From: a virus
Taxonomy: Duplodnaviria; Heunggongvirae; Uroviricota; Caudoviricetes
Reading direction: 5' to 3' (one strand)
IMG/VR virus record: IMGVR_UViG_2744054628_000002
Span: 1-11,990 of that record
DNA length: 11,990 bases
Shown: in pieces, positions 1-11,990 of the stretch
Layout: every line of letters begins with the position of its first letter
Numbering within the stretch: the first letter of the stretch is position 1
Made by a program: the position numbers and the translations under genes
The notes under the pieces: generated by a model
What the model was told of the DNA's origin: nothing
What the model saw: the letters and a program-made list of their open reading frames with translations, nothing else
The model's database searches: none

Positions 1-61
1 CAGAGTGGGCGCGAGACGTTACGACAACTGGAAACTAAAACTGGGGCAACAAGATATCTGA
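1..61 (+). CDS. 3' end of an upstream gene (partial, runs off window start); product unknown
   Basis: Open frame from position 2 ending ...RVGARRYDNWKLKLGQQDI, with TGA at 59-61 overlapping the ATG at 61-63 (ATGA-type coupling). Too short to identify. Confidence 0.3.
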   Translation, partial: RVGARRYDNWKLKLGQQDI

Positions 62-357
62 TGAGCGTTCTGGCCAGAGAGCTGGTTGCCAGTGGCGATG
101 TATACAACTCTGGTTACGGGTTATTCCCGTCTGAACAGGCGCGTAAGGACTGGCAAAATGCCCGTAAAAAGCTCTCAAGGGCAAAGCTGAAGAAACCATC
201 TGCGGTTGATCCGGACCTTATCTGGTCATTACCTGATGGAGAAATACGTCGTTACGACAGGCGTCATAATATGATTTGTACTGAGTGTCGTAAAAGCGAA
301 GTTATGCAGCGCATATTGTCGTTTTATCAGGGTGATGTTCGGTATTTATTGAAGTGA
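61..357 (+). CDS. hypothetical small prophage early-region protein, 98 aa
   Basis: ATG 61 to TGA 355-357; start overlaps the upstream stop; basic, Cys-containing C-terminal half (ICTECRK). Family not recognised from sequence alone. Confidence 0.55.
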   Translation: MSVLARELVASGDVYNSGYGLFPSEQARKDWQNARKKLSRAKLKKPSAVDPDLIWSLPDGEIRRYDRRHNMICTECRKSEVMQRILSFYQGDVRYLLK

Positions 358-488
358 CGAGATTAAAGTGCATTAGTTCAGATGCAAATTGACATTTTGT
401 GGCACAGGGTAGAGCTAGCGTGGTTGTCCGCTTTGTGCCAATAGCGGACATTGCTGGCTCATGGTATGTTAGTTTAAGGAGGCAGGTT

Positions 489-1511
489 ATGCCCTGTATT
501 TCGCTGTGGTATAATAGTTGCGCAATTGATACAAGGGAGCGTTACATCGTGAAAATTGTTTTCGAGGTTAATGGAAAGAAAGTTCCACTAAAATCTTTAA
601 AATACATAAGCAAAAAAGATCAACTCGAAGTAATGAAAAACTGGTTCTTTGAAAACTTTGAAGATCCGGCAAATGCTTGTCCGTATGAAAGTAGAGAAGG
701 TGGCTATGCTTACATATATGGCGGGCCGTATGATGCGAGCGAAGAACTACAATCCATCTTCGGTCAATATGTTAAATCTGAGTATATTGAGGAATTAGTA
801 GATGAATTACAAACACAATGTTTTGACTGGTCTGGAAACTCAAATAATATAGATGATTGGTACGATGATGATATCTACGACGCTGTAACGTCTTCCGGTA
901 ATCCGTATTTAAAATTCATTGATAATATCGATAAAATAAAAAAACTTGCAAAAGATAAAACTGAACAACAGCAAAAAAACCACTTGCTTAGTTTGCTCTA
1001 CACGAATGTTATTACAGCTTTGGAAACGCTTTATGTTGAGCTATTCATTAATTCTATAGAGAAAGATGATGTCTACATAGCCAATTGTATAGAAAAAGGT
1101 AAGACTGAATTTAAAGTAAGCAAAGATATTGCTGCGTTGCCTTTCAAGGGTGAACCCATCGAGAAAATTAGGGGAGAGCTAATCAGGTCAATCAAGGAAC
1201 ACTTGATCAGTGCAAGCTGGCATAGCACTAAAAAGGTAATCGACCGCTATGAAGCTACATTCGATATAAAAGTACAAAAAGACTGTCCGATAGAAGCTAT
1301 TGAATTGGCAACCCTCAATCGAAATCACTTAGTGCATCGTGGTGGAAAGGATAAAGAAGGGAACCTCGTTGTGATTACAGACCAGGATCTTGAAACGCTG
1401 ATTGAAAATGCATCGAACCTGGCAATTATGCTCTACAACAGTTTAAATGTAGCAACGAATAAAACCACCATTTTGCAACCAGATGACAAACCGTTCATTC
1501 ATGAATTTTAA
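489..1511 (+). CDS. cassette protein A, unknown function; C-terminal helical region carries an R-x4-H motif (RNHLVH) compatible with a HEPN-type RNase fold. Start ambiguous: ATG 489, GTG 549, or the ORF-track GTG 399
   Basis: Long ORF ending TAA 1509-1511. ATG 489 is preceded by AAGGAGG (476-482) with a 6-nt spacer; in-frame GTG 549 is preceded by AAGGGAG (533-539). AT-rich and N/K/I/Y-rich, unlike flanking phage genes. RNHLVH is encoded at 1320-1337. I recognise no family beyond this motif. Confidence 0.7.
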   Translation: MPCISLWYNSCAIDTRERYIVKIVFEVNGKKVPLKSLKYISKKDQLEVMKNWFFENFEDPANACPYESREGGYAYIYGGPYDASEELQSIFGQYVKSEYIEELVDELQTQCFDWSGNSNNIDDWYDDDIYDAVTSSGNPYLKFIDNIDKIKKLAKDKTEQQQKNHLLSLLYTNVITALETLYVELFINSIEKDDVYIANCIEKGKTEFKVSKDIAALPFKGEPIEKIRGELIRSIKEHLISASWHSTKKVIDRYEATFDIKVQKDCPIEAIELATLNRNHLVHRGGKDKEGNLVVITDQDLETLIENASNLAIMLYNSLNVATNKTTILQPDDKPFIHEF

Positions 1512-1526
1512 TAGCGCAGGTCATAC

Positions 1527-2528
1527 ATGGATATTCGCACACGAAAGACAAAATTTTTAGAGTCGTTAGATTCAACTGAAGTGATACGCAAAGCAGTAAG
1601 TCTCGCTATAGATTGCATTATTGATAATCATAATAGTAATGAAGATACCCCCTTAGTTATTACCAGCTATGATGATCTCTGTAGAATCCAGGTGCTAAAT
1701 TATGTACAGGAGTTTTGCGAAGCTGCATTCCCTGATATGGATGAATATTACTTTAGTCCTAACATACTTCGCATCAACGGCAAGACTAGTGAAGAAGCTT
1801 GTATTAACTTAATTAAACTCTTAAGAAGTACAAAAGGCATGCTATTCTGGTCCGATGCCCCATCGTGGTTCGCTAGCCTCCCCGACGGATTATTCCATGT
1901 TGTTAACATTGATCAAAAAATCGTTACTCGCGGCCTTAATAAGAAAAACTCTAAGCCGACAATAATCAATAAAGATTACAGTGTAGATACACTACTATCA
2001 GAGCTATTTTTGAATGGCGCACACATGGAGCAACCCAACGTACACAACGTTTCTGAGGGAAACATGAAGTTCTATGATGAATGCCATGCTGGATTAATCA
2101 GACCAATACCCGCTCCAATAGGCGCGTCATACGATGAAGAGATCACAATTAATTCTCCAGATTGGCAAAAGCTCGCGTGTGTAGCTTTACGCCGCTATCA
2201 GTCGAAGGAATGTCATGACGGAATGCAATGGGATACAACCGATCATGGTTGGACTGATGTAATCGCGTATCCATTCGTCGAAGAAATACAATCAATGGAT
2301 AATAGTGGTTATCGACAATGTTTAGTTGGGCTGGTCACAATAAACAATTCAAATGCAAATTCTCCGTACCTATCTACCGTTTGGATACATCCATTTTATC
2401 GCAGGAGAGGGTTATTAAGTAAGTTATGGCCAAAATTACAAGAGTTATATGGAAGTAACTTCGAAATTGAGCGACCTAATGAAAATATGAAAGCATTTCT
2501 GAAAAGTGCGAAACACGCAGATTACTAA
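1527..2528 (+). CDS. cassette protein B, 333 aa; unknown N-terminal domain plus C-terminal region with a GNAT-acetyltransferase-like motif A (IHPFYRRRGLLSKLW)
   Basis: ATG 1527 lies 15 nt after the stop of protein A, same strand, implying an operon; stop TAA 2526-2528. The motif at about 2385-2429 resembles the acetyl-CoA-binding V-x-P-x-x-R-x-x-G-x-G/A segment of GNAT enzymes, with L in place of the second G. AT-rich like gene A. Confidence 0.75.
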   Translation: MDIRTRKTKFLESLDSTEVIRKAVSLAIDCIIDNHNSNEDTPLVITSYDDLCRIQVLNYVQEFCEAAFPDMDEYYFSPNILRINGKTSEEACINLIKLLRSTKGMLFWSDAPSWFASLPDGLFHVVNIDQKIVTRGLNKKNSKPTIINKDYSVDTLLSELFLNGAHMEQPNVHNVSEGNMKFYDECHAGLIRPIPAPIGASYDEEITINSPDWQKLACVALRRYQSKECHDGMQWDTTDHGWTDVIAYPFVEEIQSMDNSGYRQCLVGLVTINNSNANSPYLSTVWIHPFYRRRGLLSKLWPKLQELYGSNFEIERPNENMKAFLKSAKHADY

Positions 2529-2941
2529 TTTATGAATCAGTCTGTGGAGTTAGAGTTGGTGTGAACAAGTAGGGTAAGAGCCTCAACGTGATGCTATGCC
2601 GACCTGCTCCCTGAGAATTCACACAGAAGGCTGCTAGCAATGTCTGCAGATCGCTCAAAGCGGACTAGAAGGTTAGCTTGCGTCGGACTTGGCGTATTTA
2701 AAGAAGTGCTGGTGGTGACTGGTTGTTGTGTTCCATTTCTACAGAACAAAATCACAGAAACTATACCCAATAGTTGTATCTCATCAATGATGAGACAGCC
2801 TCATATTTATCAGGACTGGTGTACGTCCAATACAGGAGGTTGTCGTGCTGGTTCTCAAATGTGCGCTGGCTATTGCAGCTGTAATGGCAATTTATTGTCT
2901 TGCTGTTGTTCTTATGGATCGCTTTTCTGATTGATTTTATA

Positions 2942-2970
2942 TTGGCGAGGTAACGGGAGTTAAGTAGAAT
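2942..2970 (+). promoter_or_regulatory. candidate sigma70 promoter for hok mRNA (-35 TTGGCG 2942-2947, 17-nt spacer, -10 TAGAAT 2965-2970)
   Basis: Hexamers and spacing read directly. The predicted start (~2977) falls at GGTGCTTGAGGCTATCTG, which resembles the conserved 5' end of hok-family mRNAs as I recall it (GGCGCTTGAGGCTTTCTG in plasmid R1). Confidence 0.45.
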
Positions 2971-3145
2971 GGCTGCGGGTGCTTGAGGCTATCTGTCTCA
3001 GGCATGAACACCAAAGGCAGATAGAGAAAAGCCCCAGTTAACATTACGCGTCCTGCAAGACGCTTAACATTAATCTGAGGCTCAATCTATGAACGGCAAA
3101 TCTAGGTTAGCCTCTTACGTGCCGAAAGGCAAGGAGAAGCAGGCT

Positions 3146-3301
3146 ATGAAGCAGCAAAAGGCGATGTTAATCGCCCTGATCGTCATCTGTTTAACCGTCA
3201 TAGTGACGGCACTGGTAACGAGGAAAGACCTCTGCGAGGTACGAATCCGAACCGGCCAGACGGAGGTCGCTGTCTTCACAGCTTACGAACCTGAGGAGTA
3301 A
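3146..3301 (+). CDS. hok: Hok-family type I toxin (small membrane host-killing peptide), 51 aa
   Basis: Translation MKQQKAMLIALIVICLTVIVTALVTRKDLCEVRIRTGQTEVAVFTAYEPEE matches the Hok/Gef/RelF(HokD) family as I recall it: single TM helix and conserved C-terminal AVFxAYE. ATG 3146; AAGGAG at 3131-3136. The ORF-track start 3089 is an in-frame upstream ATG. Confidence 0.9.
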   Translation: MKQQKAMLIALIVICLTVIVTALVTRKDLCEVRIRTGQTEVAVFTAYEPEE

Positions 3302-3368
3302 GAGACCAGGCGGGGGAGAATCCCTCGCCACCTCTGATGTGTCAGGCATCCTCAACGCACCCGCACTT

Positions 3369-3395
3369 AACCCGCTTCGGCGGGTTTTGTTTTTT
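3369..3395 (+). terminator. intrinsic terminator at the 3' end of the hok transcript
   Basis: AACCCGC (3369-3375), TTCG loop, GCGGGTT (3380-3386), then TTGTTTTTT. Lies inside the 5' part of ORF-track ORF 3339..3746, arguing that the downstream gene starts later. Confidence 0.7.
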
Positions 3396-3467
3396 CCTAG
3401 CATTCTGGTTTACAATTCGCACGCCAGCCTGAACAACTGGCACCTGCTGCGCCAGCAGAGACAACCG

Positions 3468-3746
3468 ATGGCGCACGATACCAAATTACACAATTCTGAT
3501 GATTCTGCCGTCTTTGCCAGCAGGCACGGGCGGCGTTCCCGCACTTTCAAATCTGACTGGTTCCAGCATCCCCCATGCACTGAAGAACAGGCCGAGTGGC
3601 TAATTCAGTGCTACCGCAGACACGGATACGAGATTAAGAAAGCCCTCAGCCTCGATTATCGTCACTGGATAATCTCCGTCAGGCTTCCTTACTCCGAGCG
3701 CCCACCGCGTCCGTCCCGCACATTCCAGCAACGCATCTGGAGGTAA
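3468..3746 (+). CDS. small basic prophage protein, Rem-like by position (between hok and the DUF968 gene, as rem is in Qin); function unknown
   Basis: First ATG (3468) downstream of the hok terminator in the 3339..3746 frame; stop TAA 3744-3746 sits inside the RBS-start spacer of the next gene. Positional analogy is from memory of the K-12 Qin map. Confidence 0.5.
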   Translation: MAHDTKLHNSDDSAVFASRHGRRSRTFKSDWFQHPPCTEEQAEWLIQCYRRHGYEIKKALSLDYRHWIISVRLPYSERPPRPSRTFQQRIWR

Positions 3747-3747
3747 C

Positions 3748-4797
3748 GTGCGGGTATTACTTCGACCTGTTCTGGTACCGGAACTCGGGCTGGTGATCGT
3801 TAAGCCGGGCCGTGAATCCATGCCGGTATTCCACAATACCCGGGTACTGGTGGAGCCGGAACCGAAAAGCATGCGTAATCTGCCGTCCGGGGTTGTTCCT
3901 GCCGTTCGCCAGCCGCTAGTGGAAGACAAAACATTGCTGCCGTTTTTCAGTAACGCACGGGTGATTCGTGCTGCTGGTGGTGCTGGTGCATTGTCTGACT
4001 GGCTGTTGCGCCATATTAAATCCTGCCAGTGGCCACACGGCGATTATCATCACAGCGAAACCGTCATTCACCGTTATGGTACCGGCGCAATGGTGTTGTG
4101 CTGGCACTGCGACAACCAGCTGCGTGACCAGACATCCGAATCACTCGAGCAACTTGCTCATCAAAACCTGTCAGCATGGATGATTGACGTCATCGGTCAC
4201 GCAATAAGCGGTACGCAGGAGCGTGAATTATCTTTGGCTGAATTATCCTGGTGGGCGGTCCGCAATCAGGTGGCGGACGCGCTACCGGAAGCGGTATTAC
4301 GTCGTTCGCTGGGGTTGCGTGCAGAAAAAATCCGCTCAATGTACCGTGAAAGCGACATCGTACCGGGAGAGCAGACCGCCACCAGCATACTGAAACAGCG
4401 CACAAAAAATCTTGCGCCGCTGCCTCACGCCCACCAGCAACAGAACCCACCACAGGAAAAGACGGTGGTCAGCATTGCCGTTGATCCTGAGTCTCCGGAA
4501 TCTTTCATGAAACGACCTAAACGTCGCCGCTGGGTTAACGAGAAATACACACGCTGGGTGAAGACACAGCCGTGTGCGTGTTGTAGTAAGCCAGCCGACG
4601 ATCCCCATCACCTGATTGGTCATGGTCAGGGCGGAATGGGAACAAAATCCCACGATATTTTCACGCTACCGCTGTGTCGGGAGCATCACAACGAGCTTCA
4701 TGCGGATCCGCTGGCGTTCGAAGAAAAGCATGGTTCTCAGGTTGATTTAATTTTTCGTTTTCTTGATCACGCCTTTGCAACCGGCGTGCTTGGGTAA
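3748..4797 (+). CDS. DUF968/YdfU-like prophage protein with C-terminal Cys/His-rich HNH-like motif, 349 aa
   Basis: GTG 3748 preceded by GGAGG (3739-3743); C-terminus has CACC...HHLIGHGQGGMGTKSHD...CREHHNELH. Size, sequence and position upstream of rusA and Q match YdfU-type proteins as I recall them. Confidence 0.8.
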   Translation: MRVLLRPVLVPELGLVIVKPGRESMPVFHNTRVLVEPEPKSMRNLPSGVVPAVRQPLVEDKTLLPFFSNARVIRAAGGAGALSDWLLRHIKSCQWPHGDYHHSETVIHRYGTGAMVLCWHCDNQLRDQTSESLEQLAHQNLSAWMIDVIGHAISGTQERELSLAELSWWAVRNQVADALPEAVLRRSLGLRAEKIRSMYRESDIVPGEQTATSILKQRTKNLAPLPHAHQQQNPPQEKTVVSIAVDPESPESFMKRPKRRRWVNEKYTRWVKTQPCACCSKPADDPHHLIGHGQGGMGTKSHDIFTLPLCREHHNELHADPLAFEEKHGSQVDLIFRFLDHAFATGVLG

Positions 4798-4809
4798 AAG
4801 GGGTTACTG

Positions 4810-5184
4810 ATGCGTATAGAGTTTGTTTTGCCTTACCCGCCGACGGTGAACACCTACTGGCGACGTCGTGGCAGCACATATTTTGTATCAAAAGCCGGTG
4901 AGCGTTATCGCCGTGATGTGGCGCTTATTGTTCGCCAGCAGCGACTGAAATTAAATCTGTCCGGAAGGCTGGCGATCAGGATTATTGTGGAGCCACCGGA
5001 TAAGCGTCGTCGCGACCTGGACAATATCCTGAAAGCACCGCTGGATGCGCTGACGCATGCGGGAGTGTTAATGGACGATGAGCAGTTTGATGAAATCAAT
5101 ATCGTTCGTGGTCAGCCAGTATCTGGTGGACGTCTGGGGGTGAAGATTTACCCCATAATGCATGAAGAGCAGGTCAAAAAATGA
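4810..5184 (+). CDS. rusA: RusA-family Holliday junction resolvase (endodeoxyribonuclease), 124 aa
   Basis: Conserved RusA signatures: N-terminal PPTVNTYW and catalytic-region RRRDLDN. AAGGGG RBS 4797-4802. Stop TGA 5182-5184 overlaps the Q start. Confidence 0.93.
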   Translation: MRIEFVLPYPPTVNTYWRRRGSTYFVSKAGERYRRDVALIVRQQRLKLNLSGRLAIRIIVEPPDKRRRDLDNILKAPLDALTHAGVLMDDEQFDEINIVRGQPVSGGRLGVKIYPIMHEEQVKK

Positions 5185-6002
5185 AACTGGAAGATTTACC
5201 GAAATACTACTCCCCAAAATCCCCTTGCCTGACCGATGCATCGGCCTCAACGTCAAAAGATGCGCTGAGTATCACTGATGTGATGGCCGCGCAGGGCATG
5301 ACACAGAATCGGGCTGAGATGGGGTTTTCTGCGTTCCTGGGGAAAATGGGCATCAGTATGAATGACAGGGCGCGGGCAACAGAATTACTGGCAGATTATG
5401 CACTCAGTCGGTGCGATCGTGTGGCGGCGTTGAGAAAACTTCCGGCAGAAATAAAACCGGTAGTGATGCGCATTATGGCTTCGTACGCTTTTGAGGATTA
5501 TGCCCGCAGCGCAGCGAGTAAAAAGCAGTGCCCTTGTTGCTATGGGGAAAAATTTATTGAAAGCGTAGTTTTTACAAACAAGGTCCAGTATCCGGATGGT
5601 AAGCCGCCGGTATGGGCAAAGTGTACGAAAGGTGTGTATCCGTCTTACTGGGAAGAATGGAAAAAAGTCAGGGAGGTGGTAAAAGTTGCCTGTCCGGAGT
5701 GTGGCGGAAAGGGTGAGGTTTCCACCGCCTGTAAGGATTGCCGTGGGCGTGGTGTCGCCATTCACCGTGAAGAGTCGGTAAAACGTGGTATGCCTGTTAT
5801 CAGAGACTGCCAGCGTTGTGGTGGTCGTGGCTATGAAAGACTACCATCAACGGAGGTATTTAATGCTATATGCGAGGTGACAAACCAGATAACACGCGCG
5901 TCATGGGAAAAAACAGTTAAGAAATTCTATGATGCGCTGGTGACCCGGTTTGATATTGAAGAAGCATGGGCTGAGCGGCAGTTAAAAAAGGTAACTAGGT
6001 AA
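5181..6002 (+). CDS. Q: late-gene antitermination protein Q (lambda Q family) with an expanded Cys-rich zinc-binding region, 273 aa
   Basis: N-terminus (KYYSPKSP...DVMAAQGM) and C-terminus (SWEKTVKKFYDALV...VTR) parallel lambda Q as recalled; central CPECGGKG, CKDCRGRG and CQRCGGRG repeats. A pR'-like promoter follows immediately. Confidence 0.88.
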   Translation: MKLEDLPKYYSPKSPCLTDASASTSKDALSITDVMAAQGMTQNRAEMGFSAFLGKMGISMNDRARATELLADYALSRCDRVAALRKLPAEIKPVVMRIMASYAFEDYARSAASKKQCPCCYGEKFIESVVFTNKVQYPDGKPPVWAKCTKGVYPSYWEEWKKVREVVKVACPECGGKGEVSTACKDCRGRGVAIHREESVKRGMPVIRDCQRCGGRGYERLPSTEVFNAICEVTNQITRASWEKTVKKFYDALVTRFDIEEAWAERQLKKVTR

Positions 6003-6007
6003 CAAGG

Positions 6008-6047
6008 TTGATTTTTCCGGAATCTGTGGTAAATTCGTCATAACGAT
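6008..6047 (+). promoter_or_regulatory. pR'-like late promoter with qut-like initial transcribed region
   Basis: -35 TTGATT (6008-6013), 16-nt spacer, TGg extension (6027-6029), -10 TAAATT (6030-6035); AACGATGGG at 6042-6050 resembles the lambda pR' pause-inducing element (AACGATGGG) as I recall it. Sits directly after Q. Confidence 0.5.
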
Positions 6048-6082
6048 GGGCGTTTTATGCCTGGCGTTAGAAGAGTTTCTAC

Positions 6083-6106
6083 AACCCGCCGCTGAGCGGG
6101 TTTTTT
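6083..6106 (+). terminator. tR'-like intrinsic terminator downstream of the late promoter
   Basis: AACCCGC (6083-6089), 6-nt loop, GCGGGTT (6096-6102) running into TTTTTT (6101-6106), then ATT. Confidence 0.6.
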
Positions 6107-6145
6107 ATTGCGAAATTAATTACGGACCGTTATTATTCTGCTCCC

Positions 6146-6221
6146 GGCCCTTTAGCTCAGTGGTGAGAGCGAGCGACTCATAATCGCCAGGTCGCTGGTT
6201 CAAATCCAGCAAGGGCCACCA
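6146..6221 (+). tRNA. tRNA with CAT anticodon (Met or lysidine-type Ile2), 76 nt, CCA encoded; probably the ileX/ileZ-like tRNA that lambdoid and Stx phages carry after Q
   Basis: Hand-folded cloverleaf: acceptor GGCCCTT/AAGGGCC, D-arm GCTC-AGTGGTGA-GAGC, anticodon loop CTCATAA (CAT at 6179-6181), T-arm GCTGG-TTCAAAT-CCAGC, discriminator A, CCA 6219-6221. Close to E. coli ileX as recalled. Confidence 0.85.
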
Positions 6222-6321
6222 TCACAAACCGCCATTAGCTTATCAGGAAGAGCAGACGACACGATAACAGGGTTGTTGGTGCGGGGGCGGGTCCCCGATG
6301 GCGGTCCATTATCGGTATTCA

Positions 6322-6366
6322 GCGTTGTTAGCTCAGCCGGACAGAGCAATTGCCTTCTAAGCAGCT
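6322..6366 (+). tRNA. tRNA-Arg(TCT)-like 5' portion (acceptor 5' strand, D-arm, anticodon arm); 3' half degenerate, so probably a tRNA pseudogene or fragment
   Basis: GCGTTGT-TA-GCTCAGCCGGACAGAGC-A-ATTGC-CTTCTAA-GCAGC gives a canonical D-arm and a TCT anticodon loop, but I find no T-arm (GGTTGCACTCC in place of GGTTCGAATCC) and no 3' strand complementary to GCGTTGT. Confidence 0.35.
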
Positions 6367-6731
6367 GTGGTTGCACTCCTGTTGTTTCTGGTGGTGATGG
6401 TGGACTTCAGCAGCCGGATAATGTCGGTGCTGTCTGATGGTGTTTTGGTGGCGGGTGTGTGGTTGTTGCTTTCCCGTTGCTGAAAAAGAAAGCATCAGGC
6501 GATTAGCAGGGTATCAGTTACCCGTTGAAATTTTTAAATACCTCACAATTCCACAGCTTGATGATTGTCTGGCTGCCGGAGAATTTGTTAAAAATTACAT
6601 CGCATGGTGAATCCCCCTGTGCGGAGGGGTAATCAGCGAGTAGGTATATGGGATAATCGCGGATTCAGGTGCTGGTACTGAATTCACCGGGAGGCACCCG
6701 GCACCATGCAATGGCACATAGCGCCACTCTC

Positions 6732-6759
6732 CAGCCCCTCTCCGGAGGGGCTGTTTATA
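6732..6759 (+). terminator. GC-rich hairpin followed by T-rich tract; candidate intrinsic terminator
   Basis: 9-bp stem CAGCCCCTC / GAGGGGCTG with TCCG loop (6732-6753), then TTTATATTGATTTTG. U-tract is interrupted, so strength uncertain. Confidence 0.4.
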
Positions 6760-6787
6760 TTGATTTTGTCAGATGTGAGTAAACTCC

Positions 6788-7123
6788 TTATGGACTTTGT
6801 TGTTTTAGTCCATAAGGACATATTTGCAGAATGCAACGGTTATTAAAGCATTCATTCAATACGTTATCTGTATTTGTAGGGCATTCCTGGCTGTTTTTGA
6901 TTAAATTCCAGAATGTTTTATTGAATGGTACTACGTTGTAAATGGTTACAGGTAGCACTTTGTTATTGAGCATGATGCCTGTGTGAGTCAGTGTAAATAT
7001 ACTTTCAGGAGGTAAGAAAGCATCCGATTGATACCAGATTATTAATTTTATTTTACTCCATATGACTGAAAAAGATATTCCGCATGATGGCTGGATAACT
7101 GTATCAATCACAATCCACTTCAT
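6788..7123 (-). CDS. hypothetical Cys-containing protein in AT-rich moron, 111 aa, no recognisable family
   Basis: ATG at 7123 (- strand) preceded by AGGA with ~6-nt spacer; stop at 6788-6790. Opposite strand to all flanking phage genes, AT-rich, and sits in the Q-to-S cargo slot. No signal peptide evident. Confidence 0.6.
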
Positions 7124-7382
7124 TTACTTTCCTTGTTTATGCCTTGCTGGTGATGTTCTGAAAAGTATAAATGATATTTTTGAATTAAACCATAGAGCAG
7201 AATTATTTTTCTGATGTTGTTTATTGTTTATTTAAATACAGGGTGGTTTATATCTCGTCTTGTAGTTTATCCATGCATATCTGCTTGATAATCAGGTTTT
7301 TATTTAAGGTATGGTTTTGTGTTTTTTCTGTATTACATGTCAGGTATTTTAAAGAATTATTTTTCAGATGGTGGAAAGAACC

Positions 7383-7571
7383 ATGGCATTTAAACACTAT
7401 GATGTTGTCAGGGCGGCGCCGCCGTCAGATCTTGCGGAAAAGCTGACACATAAACTGAAAGAGGGCTGGCAGCCGTTTGGTAGTCCGGTGGCCATAACCC
7501 CTTATACCCTGATGCAGGCGATTGCAGCAGAAGGTGATGTGGTGGTCAGCGGTGCAACTGAGCCGGAGTGA
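7383..7571 (+). CDS. small conserved lambdoid-prophage protein found upstream of lysis genes (possibly DUF1737-like); function unknown
   Basis: ORF 7368..7571; internal ATG 7383 has a better purine-rich RBS (GGTGGAAAGA). N-terminus MAFKHYDVVRAAPPSDLAEKL resembles small proteins I recall at this position; family name is tentative. Confidence 0.5.
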   Translation: MAFKHYDVVRAAPPSDLAEKLTHKLKEGWQPFGSPVAITPYTLMQAIAAEGDVVVSGATEPE

Positions 7572-7814
7572 TACTACGTCATCGTACTGGCCCGGCATTC
7601 CAGGCCATAAAAGACAGTCTGGCAGTGGGACTAAATGCACTGACGCTGACGGATATTACCAAAAATGCAACGTATGGCGTTGAGATAGAAAGTCTGGTGC
7701 TGGAGATAAATGCACCGGCATCATCATAAAAAGTGAGCCAGTCAAATGGAAGGTATCGTTAAACTCACCGGTAGTGTCAGTGGGTCGTCTGAGACGCTTG
7801 CATGAGTTATCAGA

Positions 7815-7843
7815 GCCATCAGTAGTTAACTGGTGGCTTTTTT
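7815..7843 (+). terminator. intrinsic terminator immediately upstream of the holin gene
   Basis: 8-bp stem GCCATCAG / CTGGTGGC (one G-T wobble), 7-nt loop, then TTTTTT (7838-7843). Lies inside the GTG-initiated extension of ORF 7774..8094, supporting the ATG 7879 start. Confidence 0.55.
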
Positions 7844-7878
7844 ATTGTTGTCAGCTTCCGGATAACGGGAGACGGGGT

Positions 7879-8094
7879 ATGGACCAGATGGAAAAAATCA
7901 CAACAGGTGTGTCATACACCACGTCAGCGGTGGGAACGGGCTACTGGTTCCTGCAGTTGCTGGACAGGGTTTCCCCGTCTCAGTGGGCGGCAATAGGCGT
8001 GCTGGGGAGTCTGCTGTTTGGGCTGCTGACATATCTGACTAACCTGTATTTCAAAATCAGAGAGGACCGTCGTAAGGCTGCACGGGGAGAGTAA
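7879..8094 (+). CDS. S: class II holin / pinholin (phage 21 S-like), 71 aa, with dual-start motif Met1...Met4
   Basis: [15 protein letters not shown]...[40 protein letters not shown]: two TM segments plus charged tail, similar to S21 as recalled. GGGAGA RBS 7867-7872, 6-nt spacer. Confidence 0.85.
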
Positions 8095-8098
8095 TTCA

Positions 8099-8449
8099 AT
8101 GACTCAAAACTATGAACTGATTGTGAAAGGGATCCGCAATTTTGAGAATAAAGTTACGGTAACTTTAGCGTTACGGGACAAAAAACGCTTTGACGGTGAA
8201 ATTTTTGACCTGGACATCTCGCTGGACCGTGTTGAAGGTGCCGCGCTGGAGTTTTATGAGGCAGCAGCCAGAATGAGCATCAGACAGGTCTTCCTGGATG
8301 TTGCTGCCGGGTTATGTGAAGGGGATGAGCAGTCGCCGGAAAAGCGCCCCGTAATTTTAGAGGCGCAGAATGTATGGATAACCTACAAAGGAAAGCTACC
8401 GGGAAGAATTACTGGTTCTCTGAAGACTCCTCCGGAATCACAACCTTAA
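8099..8449 (+). CDS. hypothetical protein between holin and endolysin (YdfR-like by position and size; possibly DUF1327), 116 aa
   Basis: ATG 8099 follows holin stop TAA 8092-8094 by 4 nt. Positional match to ydfR between essQ and rrrQ in Qin, from memory. No catalytic motif recognised. Confidence 0.65.
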   Translation: MTQNYELIVKGIRNFENKVTVTLALRDKKRFDGEIFDLDISLDRVEGAALEFYEAAARMSIRQVFLDVAAGLCEGDEQSPEKRPVILEAQNVWITYKGKLPGRITGSLKTPPESQP

Positions 8450-8512
8450 GTCACTGACCGGAACAGATAAACCTGTCCGTGGGCAGAAACCGATAAATCC
8501 TGATAAATATCC

Positions 8513-9046
8513 ATGAACGCAAAAATCAGATACGGCCTGTCGGCTGCCGTTCTGGCACTGATTGCCGTCGGTGCGCCCGCGCCTGATATTCTCGACCAGT
8601 TTCTGGATGAAAAAGAAGGTAACCACACAACGGCATACCGCGATGGGTCCGGCATCTGGACCATCTGTCGGGGTGCCACGATGGTGGATGGAAAACCCGT
8701 TTTTCCCGGTATGAAACTGTCGAAGGAAAAATGCGACCAGGTCAACGCCATTGAGCGTGATAAGGCGCTGGCATGGGTGGAGCGCAATATTAAAGTACTA
8801 CTGACCGAACCACAAAAAGCGGGTATAGCGTCATTCTGTCCCTATAACATTGGCCCCGGTAAGTGTTTCCCGTCGACGTTTTATAAGCGGCTGAATGCCG
8901 GTGATCGTAAGGGCGCATGCGAGGCGATTCGCTGGTGGATAAAAGATGGTGGGCGCGATTGCCGCATACGTTCAAATAACTGCTATGGACAGGTTATTCG
9001 TCGTGACCAGGAAAGCGCATTAGCCTGTTGGGGGATAGAGCAGTGA
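8513..9046 (+). CDS. R: SAR endolysin (T4-lysozyme-like muramidase, phage 21 R / RrrQ-like), 177 aa
   Basis: Gly/Ala-rich hydrophobic N-terminal signal-anchor-release segment ([16 protein letters not shown]), then E-x8-D-x5-T catalytic pattern ([16 protein letters not shown]) and C-terminal ALACWG, as in R21-type lysozymes. Confidence 0.9.
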
Positions 9047-9504
9047 GCAGAGTCGCCGCGATTATTTATGCTTTGGTTATCTGCATCATCGTCTGCCTGT
9101 CGTGGGCGGTCAATCATTACCGTGATAACGCCATCGCCTACAAAGAACAGCGTGATAAAAAAGTCAGTGAGCTGAAGCAGGCGATCGCCACTATCGCTGA
9201 CATGCAGCAGCGTCAGCGTGATGTTGCTGCGCTCGATGCAAAATACACGAGGGAGTTAGCTGATGCGAAAGCTGAAAATGATGCTCTGCGTGATGATGTT
9301 GCCGCTGGTCGTCGTCGGTTGCACATCAAAGCAGTCTGTCAGTCAGTGCGTGAAGCCACCACCGCCTCCGGCGTGGATAATGCAGCCACCCCCCGACTGG
9401 CAGACACCGCTGAACGGGATTATTTCACCCTCAGAGAGAGGCTGATCACTATGCAAAAACAACTGGAAGGAACCCAGAAGTATATTAATGAGCAGTGCAG
9501 ATAG
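9043..9504 (+). CDS. Rz: i-spanin Rz, 153 aa
   Basis: GTG 9043 overlaps the R stop (TGA 9044-9046) and follows GGGGGA. Product [31 protein letters not shown]... is near-identical to lambda Rz as recalled. The ORF-track start 9028 is TTG inside R. Confidence 0.9.
9263..9445 (+). CDS. Rz1: o-spanin Rz1 lipoprotein, 60 aa, embedded in the +1 frame of Rz
   Basis: [24 protein letters not shown]...[29 protein letters not shown]: lipobox VVGC, proline-rich; matches lambda Rz1 as recalled. GGGAG RBS 9251-9255. Confidence 0.9.
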
Positions 9505-9535
9505 AGCTGCCCATATCGATGGGCAACTCATGCAA

Positions 9536-9829
9536 TTATTGTGAGCAATACACACGCGCTTCCAGTGGAGTATAAATGCCTAAAGTAATAAAACCGAGAA
9601 ATCCATTTACGAATGTTTGCTGGGTTTCTGTTTTAACAACATTTTCTGCGCCGCCACAAATTTTGGCTGCATCAACAGTTTTCTCCTGTCCAATTCCCGA
9701 AACGAAGAAATGATGGGTGATGGTTTCCTTTGGTGTTACTGCTGTCGGTTTGTTTCCAACAGTAAACGTCTGTTGAGCACATCCTGTAATAAGCATTGCC
9801 AGAGCGGCAGAAAACAACATTTTTTTCAT
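9536..9829 (-). CDS. bor: Bor lipoprotein (serum-resistance / Iss family), 97 aa
   Basis: From ATG at 9829 (- strand): MKKMLFSAALAMLITGCAQQTFTV...LEARVYCSQ with lipobox ITGC; near-identical to lambda Bor as recalled. The ORF-track start at 9877 is an upstream extension. Convergent with Rz. Confidence 0.9.
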   Translation of the reverse strand: MKKMLFSAALAMLITGCAQQTFTVGNKPTAVTPKETITHHFFVSGIGQEKTVDAAKICGGAENVVKTETQQTFVNGFLGFITLGIYTPLEARVYCSQ

Positions 9830-10212
9830 CTTATTATCCTGCATTGTTAAAAACGGCAGAATCCTATGTGACAACAATTAAACGATAGTTAAATGGATTG
9901 ATGAAAATTAAAACTATATAGGTGGATGCTCAGCCTATCGGAGGTAGTCAGGATTTGAATGTCAGTCTGTTGTCGGCATTCTGGCAATGCAATTTGGATA
10001 AAGCGGGGATTAAAAAGATAGAGGCGAGCCGGTCAGGTAGAAATGAATCAGGCTCAAAGTGAAGCGGAAAAGGTCTGTGGCACAAGCTGATGCAGCCATA
10101 ATTACAGCCTGATGATTTGTGGAATGAAACATGTTGAACCTCCTTAATTGATGTTATTCGAGTGATGAAGGCATTCTGTCCTTCTATAGTGTCCAGTAAA
10201 TCAAACAGGAAA

Positions 10213-10234
10213 CTTGTCCAACGTGTTGGACAAG
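10213..10234. repeat. perfect 10-bp inverted repeat with 2-bp spacer (CTTGTCCAAC GT GTTGGACAAG), candidate operator
   Basis: Arms are exact reverse complements; additional TGTCC-containing half-site-like copies lie just upstream (~10177-10196). About 90 bp upstream of the G start. Confidence 0.5.
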
Positions 10235-10325
10235 CCTCTCCATTAGTGAGTTGTATTGATCACAACTCTACAAAGAATTCATTACTGGGTAGATGAAAAT
10301 AGTTTCACTATGAATGGAGGAGGCT

Positions 10326-10748
10326 ATGTCGGTGGCTTCTTCATTGGAGTACCGTCAGTTAATGAGGATAGATGTGATGACTAAAAATATCCGTAATCTG
10401 GCACTGGCAGCGATGTCGGGGTTTCGCCATAAAACTGTTGATGTGCCTGAATGGGAAGGGGCAACGGTTGTATTACGGGAACCTTCTGCAGAAGCCTGGT
10501 TGCGCTGGCAGGAGATCGTTAAAGCAAAAGATGATGAGACACCGTTATCCGTTGCGGAGCTCGCCCGCCGAAATCTGGAAGCGGATGTTGAACTGTTCAT
10601 CGATGTTCTGTGTGATACCGGACTGCAACCTGTATTTTCAGTGGATGATCGTGAACAGGTGATTGCCGTGTATGGCCCGGTGCATGCGCGGCTTCTTCGG
10701 CAGTCTCTGGAACTGATCAGTGATGCCGGCGAGGTTAAAAAAAAGTAG
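10326..10748 (+). CDS. G: tail assembly chaperone G, 140 aa
   Basis: ATG 10326 with GGAGG RBS (10316-10320); ORF ends EVKKK-TAG with the slippery heptamer A_AAA_AAG (10739-10745) just before the stop. The ORF-track start 10314 is an upstream in-frame ATG without a good RBS. Confidence 0.75.
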   Translation: MSVASSLEYRQLMRIDVMTKNIRNLALAAMSGFRHKTVDVPEWEGATVVLREPSAEAWLRWQEIVKAKDDETPLSVAELARRNLEADVELFIDVLCDTGLQPVFSVDDREQVIAVYGPVHARLLRQSLELISDAGEVKKK

Positions 10749-11050
10749 CGCTTCCGGGGATGCGTTTTCTGATGATGCTGGCGCTCAGGATGGGGCGCAC
10801 ATTGTCAGAGTTACGCCGGGAAATGTCCGCATCAGAAATCATGATGTGGGCAGAGTTTGACAGGTTCAGCCCGCTGGGGGACGAACGGGCTGATATCCGG
10901 GCTGCCCAGATTGTTTCAGCTGTTTACGGTGCGCAGGGGGTCAAAGTGCCACTGAATGATGCGCTTCTTCAGTGGGAGAAGGAGCAGACAGAAGGCGTAT
11001 CAGATCCATTTGCTGGACTGGAAAACGCGCTTTTAATAGTGTCTCAGTGA
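10739..11050 (+). CDS. T: T segment of the G-T tail assembly chaperone fusion, reached by -1 programmed ribosomal frameshift at A_AAA_AAG
   Basis: The -1 frame is open from the slip site through ...VALPGMRFLMMLALRMG... (ORF 10760..11050) to TGA 11048-11050. The fusion product would span 10326..11050. Confidence 0.7.
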   Translation, partial: KKVALPGMRFLMMLALRMGRTLSELRREMSASEIMMWAEFDRFSPLGDERADIRAAQIVSAVYGAQGVKVPLNDALLQWEKEQTEGVSDPFAGLENALLIVSQ

Positions 11051-11058
11051 GTCAACAT

Positions 11059-11990
<932 letters not shown>

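Follow-up and report, generated by a model that had tools for sequence, protein, structure and literature searches.

What an anonymous two-gene cassette does for the lambdoid prophage that carries it is a question raised by the IMG/VR virus record IMGVR_UViG_2744054628_000002 (Caudoviricetes), of which we analysed positions 1 to 11,990 (hereafter the window, 11,990 nt in all). The cassette encodes protein A, which has the marks of a HEPN RNase, and directly downstream protein B, in whose C-terminal domain the original prediction, made from the sequence alone, had noticed a resemblance to the acetyl-CoA-binding motif A of GNAT acetyltransferases. As a fold assignment, and for the fold alone, we are highly confident that the flagged peptide is the beta4-loop-alpha3 element of a real but divergent GNAT domain spanning residues ~186–333 of B. 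On its role, we lean somewhat towards a composite reading, in which B is a GNAT-fold modifier and A a HEPN RNase, the two being separable modules of a mobile defence or conflict cassette. The features of protein B, in window coordinates, are these:

1527..2528, plus strand: coding sequence of protein B (333 aa, WP_000354966.1, two domains), from the open reading frame (ORF) list; 'hypothetical protein' in RefSeq
1527..2042, plus strand: N-terminal domain of B (residues 1–172), with an alpha/beta fold resembling the nucleotide-binding core of AAA+/STAND proteins
2082..2525, plus strand: minimal GNAT domain (residues ~186–333), beta1-alpha1-alpha2-beta2-beta3-beta4-alpha3-beta5-alpha4 without beta6/beta7 in the predicted structure
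2379..2429, plus strand: GNAT motif A, comprising the last part of beta4 (VWIH), the loop P-F-Y-R292-R-R-G295-L-L297 and the beginning of alpha3; a putative acetyl-CoA pyrophosphate-binding element, placed by translation, Pfam, conservation, predicted secondary structure and the register with RibT
2460..2507, plus strand: beta5-alpha4 segment FEIERPNENMKAFLKS, motif-B-like by conservation and by an in-register, low-probability hhalign alignment with the GNAT of phage Evi

The motif is present where the original prediction put it, at 2385–2429, which encodes IHPFYRRRGLLSKLW; the 17-mer quoted there, VWIHPFYRRRGLLSKLW, occupies 2379–2429, so that the start had been given 6 nt (2 residues) late. 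The likeness to GNAT motif A is beyond chance: PF00583 (Acetyltransf_1) is the sole Pfam match of protein B and covers the motif, running over residues 264–311 (beta3-beta4-motif A-alpha3) with 19.9 bits (E 9e-4), 0.8 bit short of the gathering score of 20.7. The same model was matched at E<=0.01 by 17 of 46 full-length relatives (38–91% identity; best E 6e-6). Protein B has 66 homologous clusters and a full-length match to phrog_16994, and the motif A segment is the best-conserved part of its family, with L282, T284, W286, H288, P289 and R292 in 46/46 sequences and G295 in 36/46. Against PDB sequences, a profile of the C-terminal domain family matched RibT, a GNAT of solved structure, at E 0.004, and the family consensus RnrGll aligned in register with RHQGIG of RibT. 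Foldseek comparison of B with viral predicted structures returned phage and giant-virus GNATs exclusively, and the structural top matches include the protein-lysine acetyltransferases ATAT, HAT1 and ESCO1. PDB searches by sequence with the single sequence and the full-length profile returned no GNAT and only noise (SAGA Sgf11 at E 0.39, a radical SAM protein at E 0.04), and the best NCBIfam match of B stood at E 0.048 (TIGR04045, 13.2 bits against a cut-off of 68.45).

The predicted structure agrees with these sequence matches. Its three-dimensional GNAT core is present from beta1 through alpha4 (beta1 ~192–196, alpha1 212–229, alpha2 239–242, beta2 245–255, beta3 262–273, beta4 281–287, alpha3 289–308, beta5 312–315, alpha4 319–327), and checks for a missing beta-alpha core or for homology to an unrelated fold, either of which would have spoken against the original prediction, turned up neither. 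The model contains no beta6 or beta7, as the protein, which ends at residue 333, stops 6 residues past alpha4. Motif A of B reads R-x-x-G-x-L against the Q/R-x-x-G-x-G/A of canonical GNATs (that of RimI being QRRGLG), and the replacement of the second glycine pointed out in the original prediction holds across the family: position 297 is L, M, I or F in 46/46 sequences and never G or A. The motif-B-like segment is conserved as well, with P317, M321 and F324 in 46/46 relatives and N318 in 45/46.

A check for a conserved catalytic tyrosine or glutamate had been suggested. The usual tyrosine of alpha4 appears to be missing, L325 standing in its place in a low-probability alignment (hhalign to the phage Evi GNAT, in register, probability 1.8%); E228 is conserved and is a candidate catalytic residue. 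We did not take this alignment of the B family with a single canonical GNAT as evidence of homology, given its 1.8% probability, although the register was the expected one. Y308 and G309 are also invariant among the 46 relatives, and even free-standing relatives at ~30% identity keep H288, P289 and R292 with few exceptions or none. That H288, P289, R292, Y308 and G309 do not vary in the family argues that the site in B would be functional, and conservation across the wider family makes H288 and E228 candidate catalytic residues.

Separately, the alpha1 region of the family to which this domain belongs (B residues ~190–228, window ~2094–2210; alignment A4 positions 9–48) showed a weak likeness to ribosomal protein bS18, the substrate of RimI, with about ten bS18 chains matched by the family profile at E 0.14–0.9. 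Mimicry of bS18 was rejected: 9 of 20000 shuffles scored at least as high as the real sequence, the A1 profile gave no reported match, and the likeness, not significant after database multiplicity, is probably due to chance.

The C-terminal domain also occurs on its own. An exhaustive hidden Markov model (HMM) search of 1.84 billion cluster representatives with the B family profile yielded 466 proteins at a threshold of E<=0.001. About ten were full-length two-domain relatives of B, dozens were free-standing proteins of 150–175 aa matching profile positions ~180–330, and a few were longer proteins (437–568 aa) matched in the motif region only, near their C-termini. Since dozens of free-standing proteins match the C-terminal domain alone, this domain of B is a pre-existing 'minimal GNAT' module. 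Free-standing relatives stop at the same point as B, after alpha4, and several exceed the PF00583 cut-off that B itself narrowly misses (P0224 with 27.2 bits, P0198 with 24.2, P0213 with 21.9). They share the signature IRP..A..G..FD.WIT..SP.WQR...VQ.RRY...EC and, further on, CWIHPF.R..GLL..AW.....RYG.F.I..P.S.AM..FL (alignment A4). All members that could be placed lie on integrative elements or plasmids, for example beside an integrase, a DUF3987 primase and a helix-turn-helix (HTH) gene, in a metagenomic integrase island, or on a Cupriavidus conjugative plasmid.

In the N-terminal domain of B, the strand before the expected P-loop reads PLVITSYDD, without a Walker A motif, while a Walker-B-like hhhhD is retained (LFWSD/LYWAD, with D110 nearly invariant). 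We read this domain as an NTPase-like one that has degenerated and no longer has a P-loop; presumably, it serves as a sensor or substrate-recognition module. The exhaustive HMM search found it in no other architecture than that of this family.

The name 'GNAT family N-acetyltransferase' has already been attached by PGAP to some B relatives and fragments, and since these labels predate our work the GNAT fold of B is not new in itself. What is new is that the minimal-GNAT family is defined, its N-terminal partner domain in B assigned and the A-B cassette recognised as a candidate for a conflict module. None of the defence models of PADLOC-DB v2 matches B, and A gives noise at E>0.01 only; in the literature, we found no paper on the RefSeq accessions of A and B and none on the B family among work on GNATs and defence.

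The features upstream of B are the following:

506..516, plus strand: extended -10-like element TGgTATAAT, upstream of the protein A ribosome-binding site; read by eye
549..1511, plus strand: coding sequence of protein A (320 aa), from GTG 549 (RefSeq); HEPN/RES N-terminal domain 1 and RiboL-PSP-type HEPN domain
1320..1340, plus strand: HEPN catalytic motif RNHLVHR (R-x4-H), with R258, H263 and R264 invariant in 35 homologues
1512..1526, plus strand: 15-nt spacer between A and B; the operon arrangement and spacing recur in Aeromonas, Serratia and Citrobacter

Protein A has two conceivable starts, GTG 549 with the Shine-Dalgarno sequence GGGAG and ATG 489 with TAAGGAGG, the latter giving 340 aa. 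The start at 549 is backed by RefSeq and by the N-termini of homologues, and since TGgTATAAT lies between the two, the start at 489 may precede the transcript. This element is a possible cassette promoter, judging by its letters. A consensus promoter and terminator scan of window positions 1–3200 gave nothing above shuffled expectation; the element is absent from its report, as the scan requires a -35 match.

PF18870 (HEPN/RES N-terminal domain 1) reaches 22.1 bits on protein A, below its threshold of 27.4; precomputed annotations assign PF18870 and/or PF18735 (RiboL-PSP-type HEPN) to many of its homologues. The aRES proteins, which join a RES NADase to PF18870, have been shown experimentally to act as stand-alone anti-phage proteins (bioRxiv 10.64898/2026.01.28.702374), and HepS, a solo HEPN abortive-infection protein, is encoded by Gifsy-1 at the corresponding accessory position (PMC13043305). 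By architecture, protein A would be the HEPN counterpart of aRES. Its identification as HepS itself was rejected, since HepS is much smaller, has its motif at R100-H105 and lacks the extra PF18870-type domain of A. In satellites and prophages, most genes homologous to A stand alone, and A is a candidate single-gene defence.

Whether A and B form an obligate pair can be judged from their distribution. Within E. coli they appear inseparable, each being found at >=99% identity in 209 of 5426 complete genomes, and the 15-nt spacing is retained in Aeromonas (A 86%, B 79% identity), in Serratia grimesii and on a Citrobacter plasmid. Adjacency is confined to these four groups. No A lies within 6 kb of B in Rahnella (86% identity) or beside any B relative at <=62% identity, and the B-only genomes at <=62% include Serratia sp., Colwellia, Paraglaciecola, Arsukibacterium, Marinomonas, Idiomarina, Psychrosphaera, Neptunicella and Shewanella. 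Relatives of A at <=71% identity are likewise solitary, occurring in satellite-like elements of E. coli and at Aeromonas prophage ends. An all-against-all BLAST of flanking ORFs at 15 loci revealed no conserved neighbour of B other than A, and A in three loci (E. coli, Serratia grimesii, Aeromonas).

Natural disruptions extend this picture. In E. coli SF-173, IS1 splits B after ~187 codons beside an A identical to the wild type; in E. coli AHB12, the 5' half of A is deleted next to IS1 and B is intact; and in the Providencia plasmid pNR1418-2, only the last 102 codons of A remain, followed by an intact B. Solitary occurrence together with these disruptions makes a classical toxin-antitoxin dependence unlikely in either direction, although the deletions may also abolish expression. 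A HEPN-modifier layout is present, with the R-x4-H protein A adjoining a modifying-enzyme-type gene, while A and B are not obligately coupled in genomes and IS1 knock-outs of either are viable. We infer that the two are independent modules, brought together in a single enterobacterial/Aeromonas lineage, rather than an obligate toxin-antitoxin pair.

Outside E. coli, B keeps company with mobility and conflict genes of many kinds. Its neighbours include McrBC, SIR2 with cREC, a SIR2_2 protein and Abi_2; an island of TerB, BrxCD-like, helicase, Mrr and HEPN_Toprim_N genes; HigBA and a Tse2 ADP-ribosyltransferase; and coupling-protein and transfer genes of integrative and conjugative elements (ICEs), as well as antirestriction-RadC with CbeA. 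It was found on seven plasmids and, by tblastn, in no deposited phage genome. A 3.3-kb contig in a Collinsella sp. metagenome-assembled genome carries the cassette with 100% (B) and 99.7% (A) amino-acid identity to that of E. coli; as the assembly is actinobacterial, the contig is most likely a binning contaminant.

The window itself belongs to a Rac-like lambdoid E. coli prophage and is 99.9–100% identical to prophages of S88 (where it is integrated beside ompW), IHE3034, UTI89, APEC O1 and ATCC 11775. The A and B genes form an island of 35–41% GC in a prophage of ~50% GC, with the DUF977 gene of the replication module on one side and the hokD/sok locus on the other. The slot after DUF977 is variable, being filled in other strains by QueH, an S-adenosylmethionine-dependent methyltransferase or unknown genes. 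Phage Evi (4122–5335) has in the same slot, after its DUF977-like gene, an HTH-cupin regulator together with a canonical GNAT (Acetyltransf_10, E 2e-13), both encoded on the opposite strand; an acetyltransferase was thus gained independently at this site.

Several observations concern the rest of the prophage. The next feature downstream of the cassette is the hokD/sok type I toxin-antitoxin locus at 2977–3301 (Rfam sok, 110 bits; Hok-like ORF at 3089–3301). Downstream of the Q antiterminator lie a single tRNA-Met (CAT) at 6146–6221 and the small RNA STnc100 (Rfam, 132 bits) at 6572–6762; S88 has at this place a DNA methyltransferase and three tRNAs (Ile, Arg, Arg) instead, so this region varies between otherwise near-identical prophages. 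Between it and the lysis genes, an ORF of 111 aa without Pfam match sits in a 32% GC pocket (6788–7123, minus strand) and is possibly another moron. From 9536 to 11050, the tail assembly chaperone genes (Phage_TAC_1, Phage_tail_T) come straight after the lysis cassette and bor; with no terminase or head genes, this prophage copy has suffered a deletion and is defective.

How these data bear on function depends on which reading is adopted. In the composite reading that we favour, B would bind acetyl-CoA through its R292-x-x-G295 loop and acetylate a macromolecular target, perhaps a protein amine or an aminoacyl-tRNA, with the N-terminal domain controlling recognition or activation; in E. coli, B would be co-transcribed with the HEPN RNase A, and the low-GC moron cassette would most probably serve phage defence or conflict between elements. 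The sampled cargo of the DUF977 slot contained no known defence systems, and the 'hot-spot' argument therefore favours a moron and not specifically a defence gene. A bolder proposal, possible though rather doubtful at present, makes B (alone or with A) the effector of an undescribed anti-phage family, in which a P-loop-less STAND/AAA+-like sensor controls a minimal GNAT that acetylates a host or phage macromolecule; in a sub-variant B acetylates A, and acetylation would then for the first time be seen to control a HEPN RNase in a type-VII-like manner. To our knowledge, acetylation is not established as an effector chemistry of bacterial immunity. A toxin-antitoxin-like pair, in which A restrains a B that acetylates aminoacyl-tRNA in the manner of TacT or AtaT, or in which B neutralises the RNase A by acetylation much as MNT AMPylates HepT, is an unlikely alternative. 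The tight operon with its spacer kept across genera, the joint presence of A and B in every E. coli genome that has either, and their co-divergence between E. coli and Aeromonas all speak for such a pair, as does the frequent control of HEPN proteins by an adjacent modifying enzyme (PMC13000451). Yet B has no DUF1778 or ribbon-helix-helix (RHH) partner, is double the size of a GNAT toxin and matches none of the toxin families in NCBIfam or Pfam; in most lineages each gene occurs without the other, and A persists with a split B in SF-173 as B does with a truncated A in AHB12 and pNR1418-2. Stand-alone relatives of A-type proteins (aRES, HepS) are, moreover, inactive by default without a partner.

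Equally improbable in our estimate is that B serves mobile elements in anti-defence or establishment, as a GNAT that disables a host immune protein as AcrVA5 does Cas12a. The carriage of B and its minimal-GNAT relatives by ICEs, integrative elements, plasmids and prophages is consistent with this idea, as are their frequent proximity to antirestriction-RadC, relaxase/TraD or integrase and DUF3987 primase genes and the protein-lysine acetyltransferases (ATAT, HAT1, ESCO1) among the structural top matches. Nevertheless, the E. coli B is partnered with a defence-type HEPN protein, other copies sit in chromosomal settings resembling defence islands (McrBC, SIR2, Mrr), and none is found in a deposited phage genome. 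We give little credence to B being a small-molecule acetyltransferase for polyamines, antibiotics or other metabolites, which would make it an ordinary moron for metabolism or resistance, with no connection to A. Slightly less probable still is a pseudoenzyme, whose GNAT-like domain would be a catalytically dead scaffold used for binding only. The missing beta6 and beta7, the last motif A residue that is never G or A, the variable G295 and the apparent absence of the alpha4 tyrosine would fit a dead enzyme; the strict retention of H288, P289, R292, Y308, G309, P317, M321 and F324, and of N318 in all but one of the 46, among relatives at 38–90% identity does not, and the persistence of H288, P289 and R292 at ~30% identity is a pattern typical of a conserved active or cofactor site.

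The cassette occurs in ~4% of complete E. coli genomes, including the much-studied extraintestinal pathogens UTI89, S88, APEC O1 and IHE3034 and the type strain of the species, and both of its genes are still annotated as 'hypothetical'. Assigning B to the GNATs and A to a HEPN/aRES-type architecture turns this anonymous moron into a testable two-gene candidate for defence or conflict, and brings to light a previously unnamed family of minimal GNATs (~160 aa, ending after alpha4) that is widespread on integrative elements. If B is enzymatically active, its target would reveal whether acetylation serves as an immune or a counter-immune chemistry, and the natural IS1 disruptions in SF-173, AHB12 and Providencia pNR1418-2 are ready-made genetic controls.

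Set beside known systems, B is by fold a non-canonical member of the GNAT superfamily (PF00583; RimI, RibT, SSAT2, alpha-tubulin acetyltransferase). It shares with the superfamily the fold from beta1 to alpha4, the R-x-x-G of motif A in register and a motif-B-like N-x-x-M/A-x-x-F helix, and it departs from it in the lack of beta6 and beta7, in leucine or methionine for the final Gly/Ala, in the apparent lack of the alpha4 tyrosine and in its fusion to a 170-aa AAA+/STAND-like domain without a P-loop. With the GNAT toxins (TacT, AtaT, ItaT and KacT, paired with DUF1778; PMC9177977), it has in common the fold and a place in small operons borne by mobile elements and tied to growth control or conflict. 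However, it has two domains and 333 aa against a single domain of ~170 aa (~160–180) in the toxins, no DUF1778/RHH antitoxin accompanies it (the gene upstream, encoding protein A, gave no Pfam match to DUF1778), it is solitary in most genomes, and its E. coli partner is a HEPN RNase rather than a DNA-binding antitoxin. By partner, size and sequence alike, B is not in the GNAT-toxin/DUF1778 family.

AcrVA5, reportedly a phage GNAT with a single canonical domain that acetylates Cas12a, resembles B as a mobile-element GNAT acting (in the case of B, presumably) on a protein in phage-host conflict; the likeness is one of type, and B, unlike AcrVA5, adjoins defence-type genes. The HepT/MntA (HEPN-MNT) type VII toxin-antitoxin systems also place a HEPN RNase gene beside that of a covalent-modification enzyme, but in A-B the modifier is a GNAT and not a nucleotidyltransferase, the HEPN gene comes first, the two genes are separable in nature and A carries an aRES-type N-terminal domain typical of stand-alone defence proteins. 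A itself shares with aRES the PF18870-type N-terminal domain (a sub-threshold match in A, carried by its relatives) and with HepS the R-x4-H effector logic of HEPN proteins; the HepS gene, too, lies in a lambdoid accessory slot of this kind, following the replication genes. Both aRES and HepS are single-gene systems, whereas A is trailed by B.

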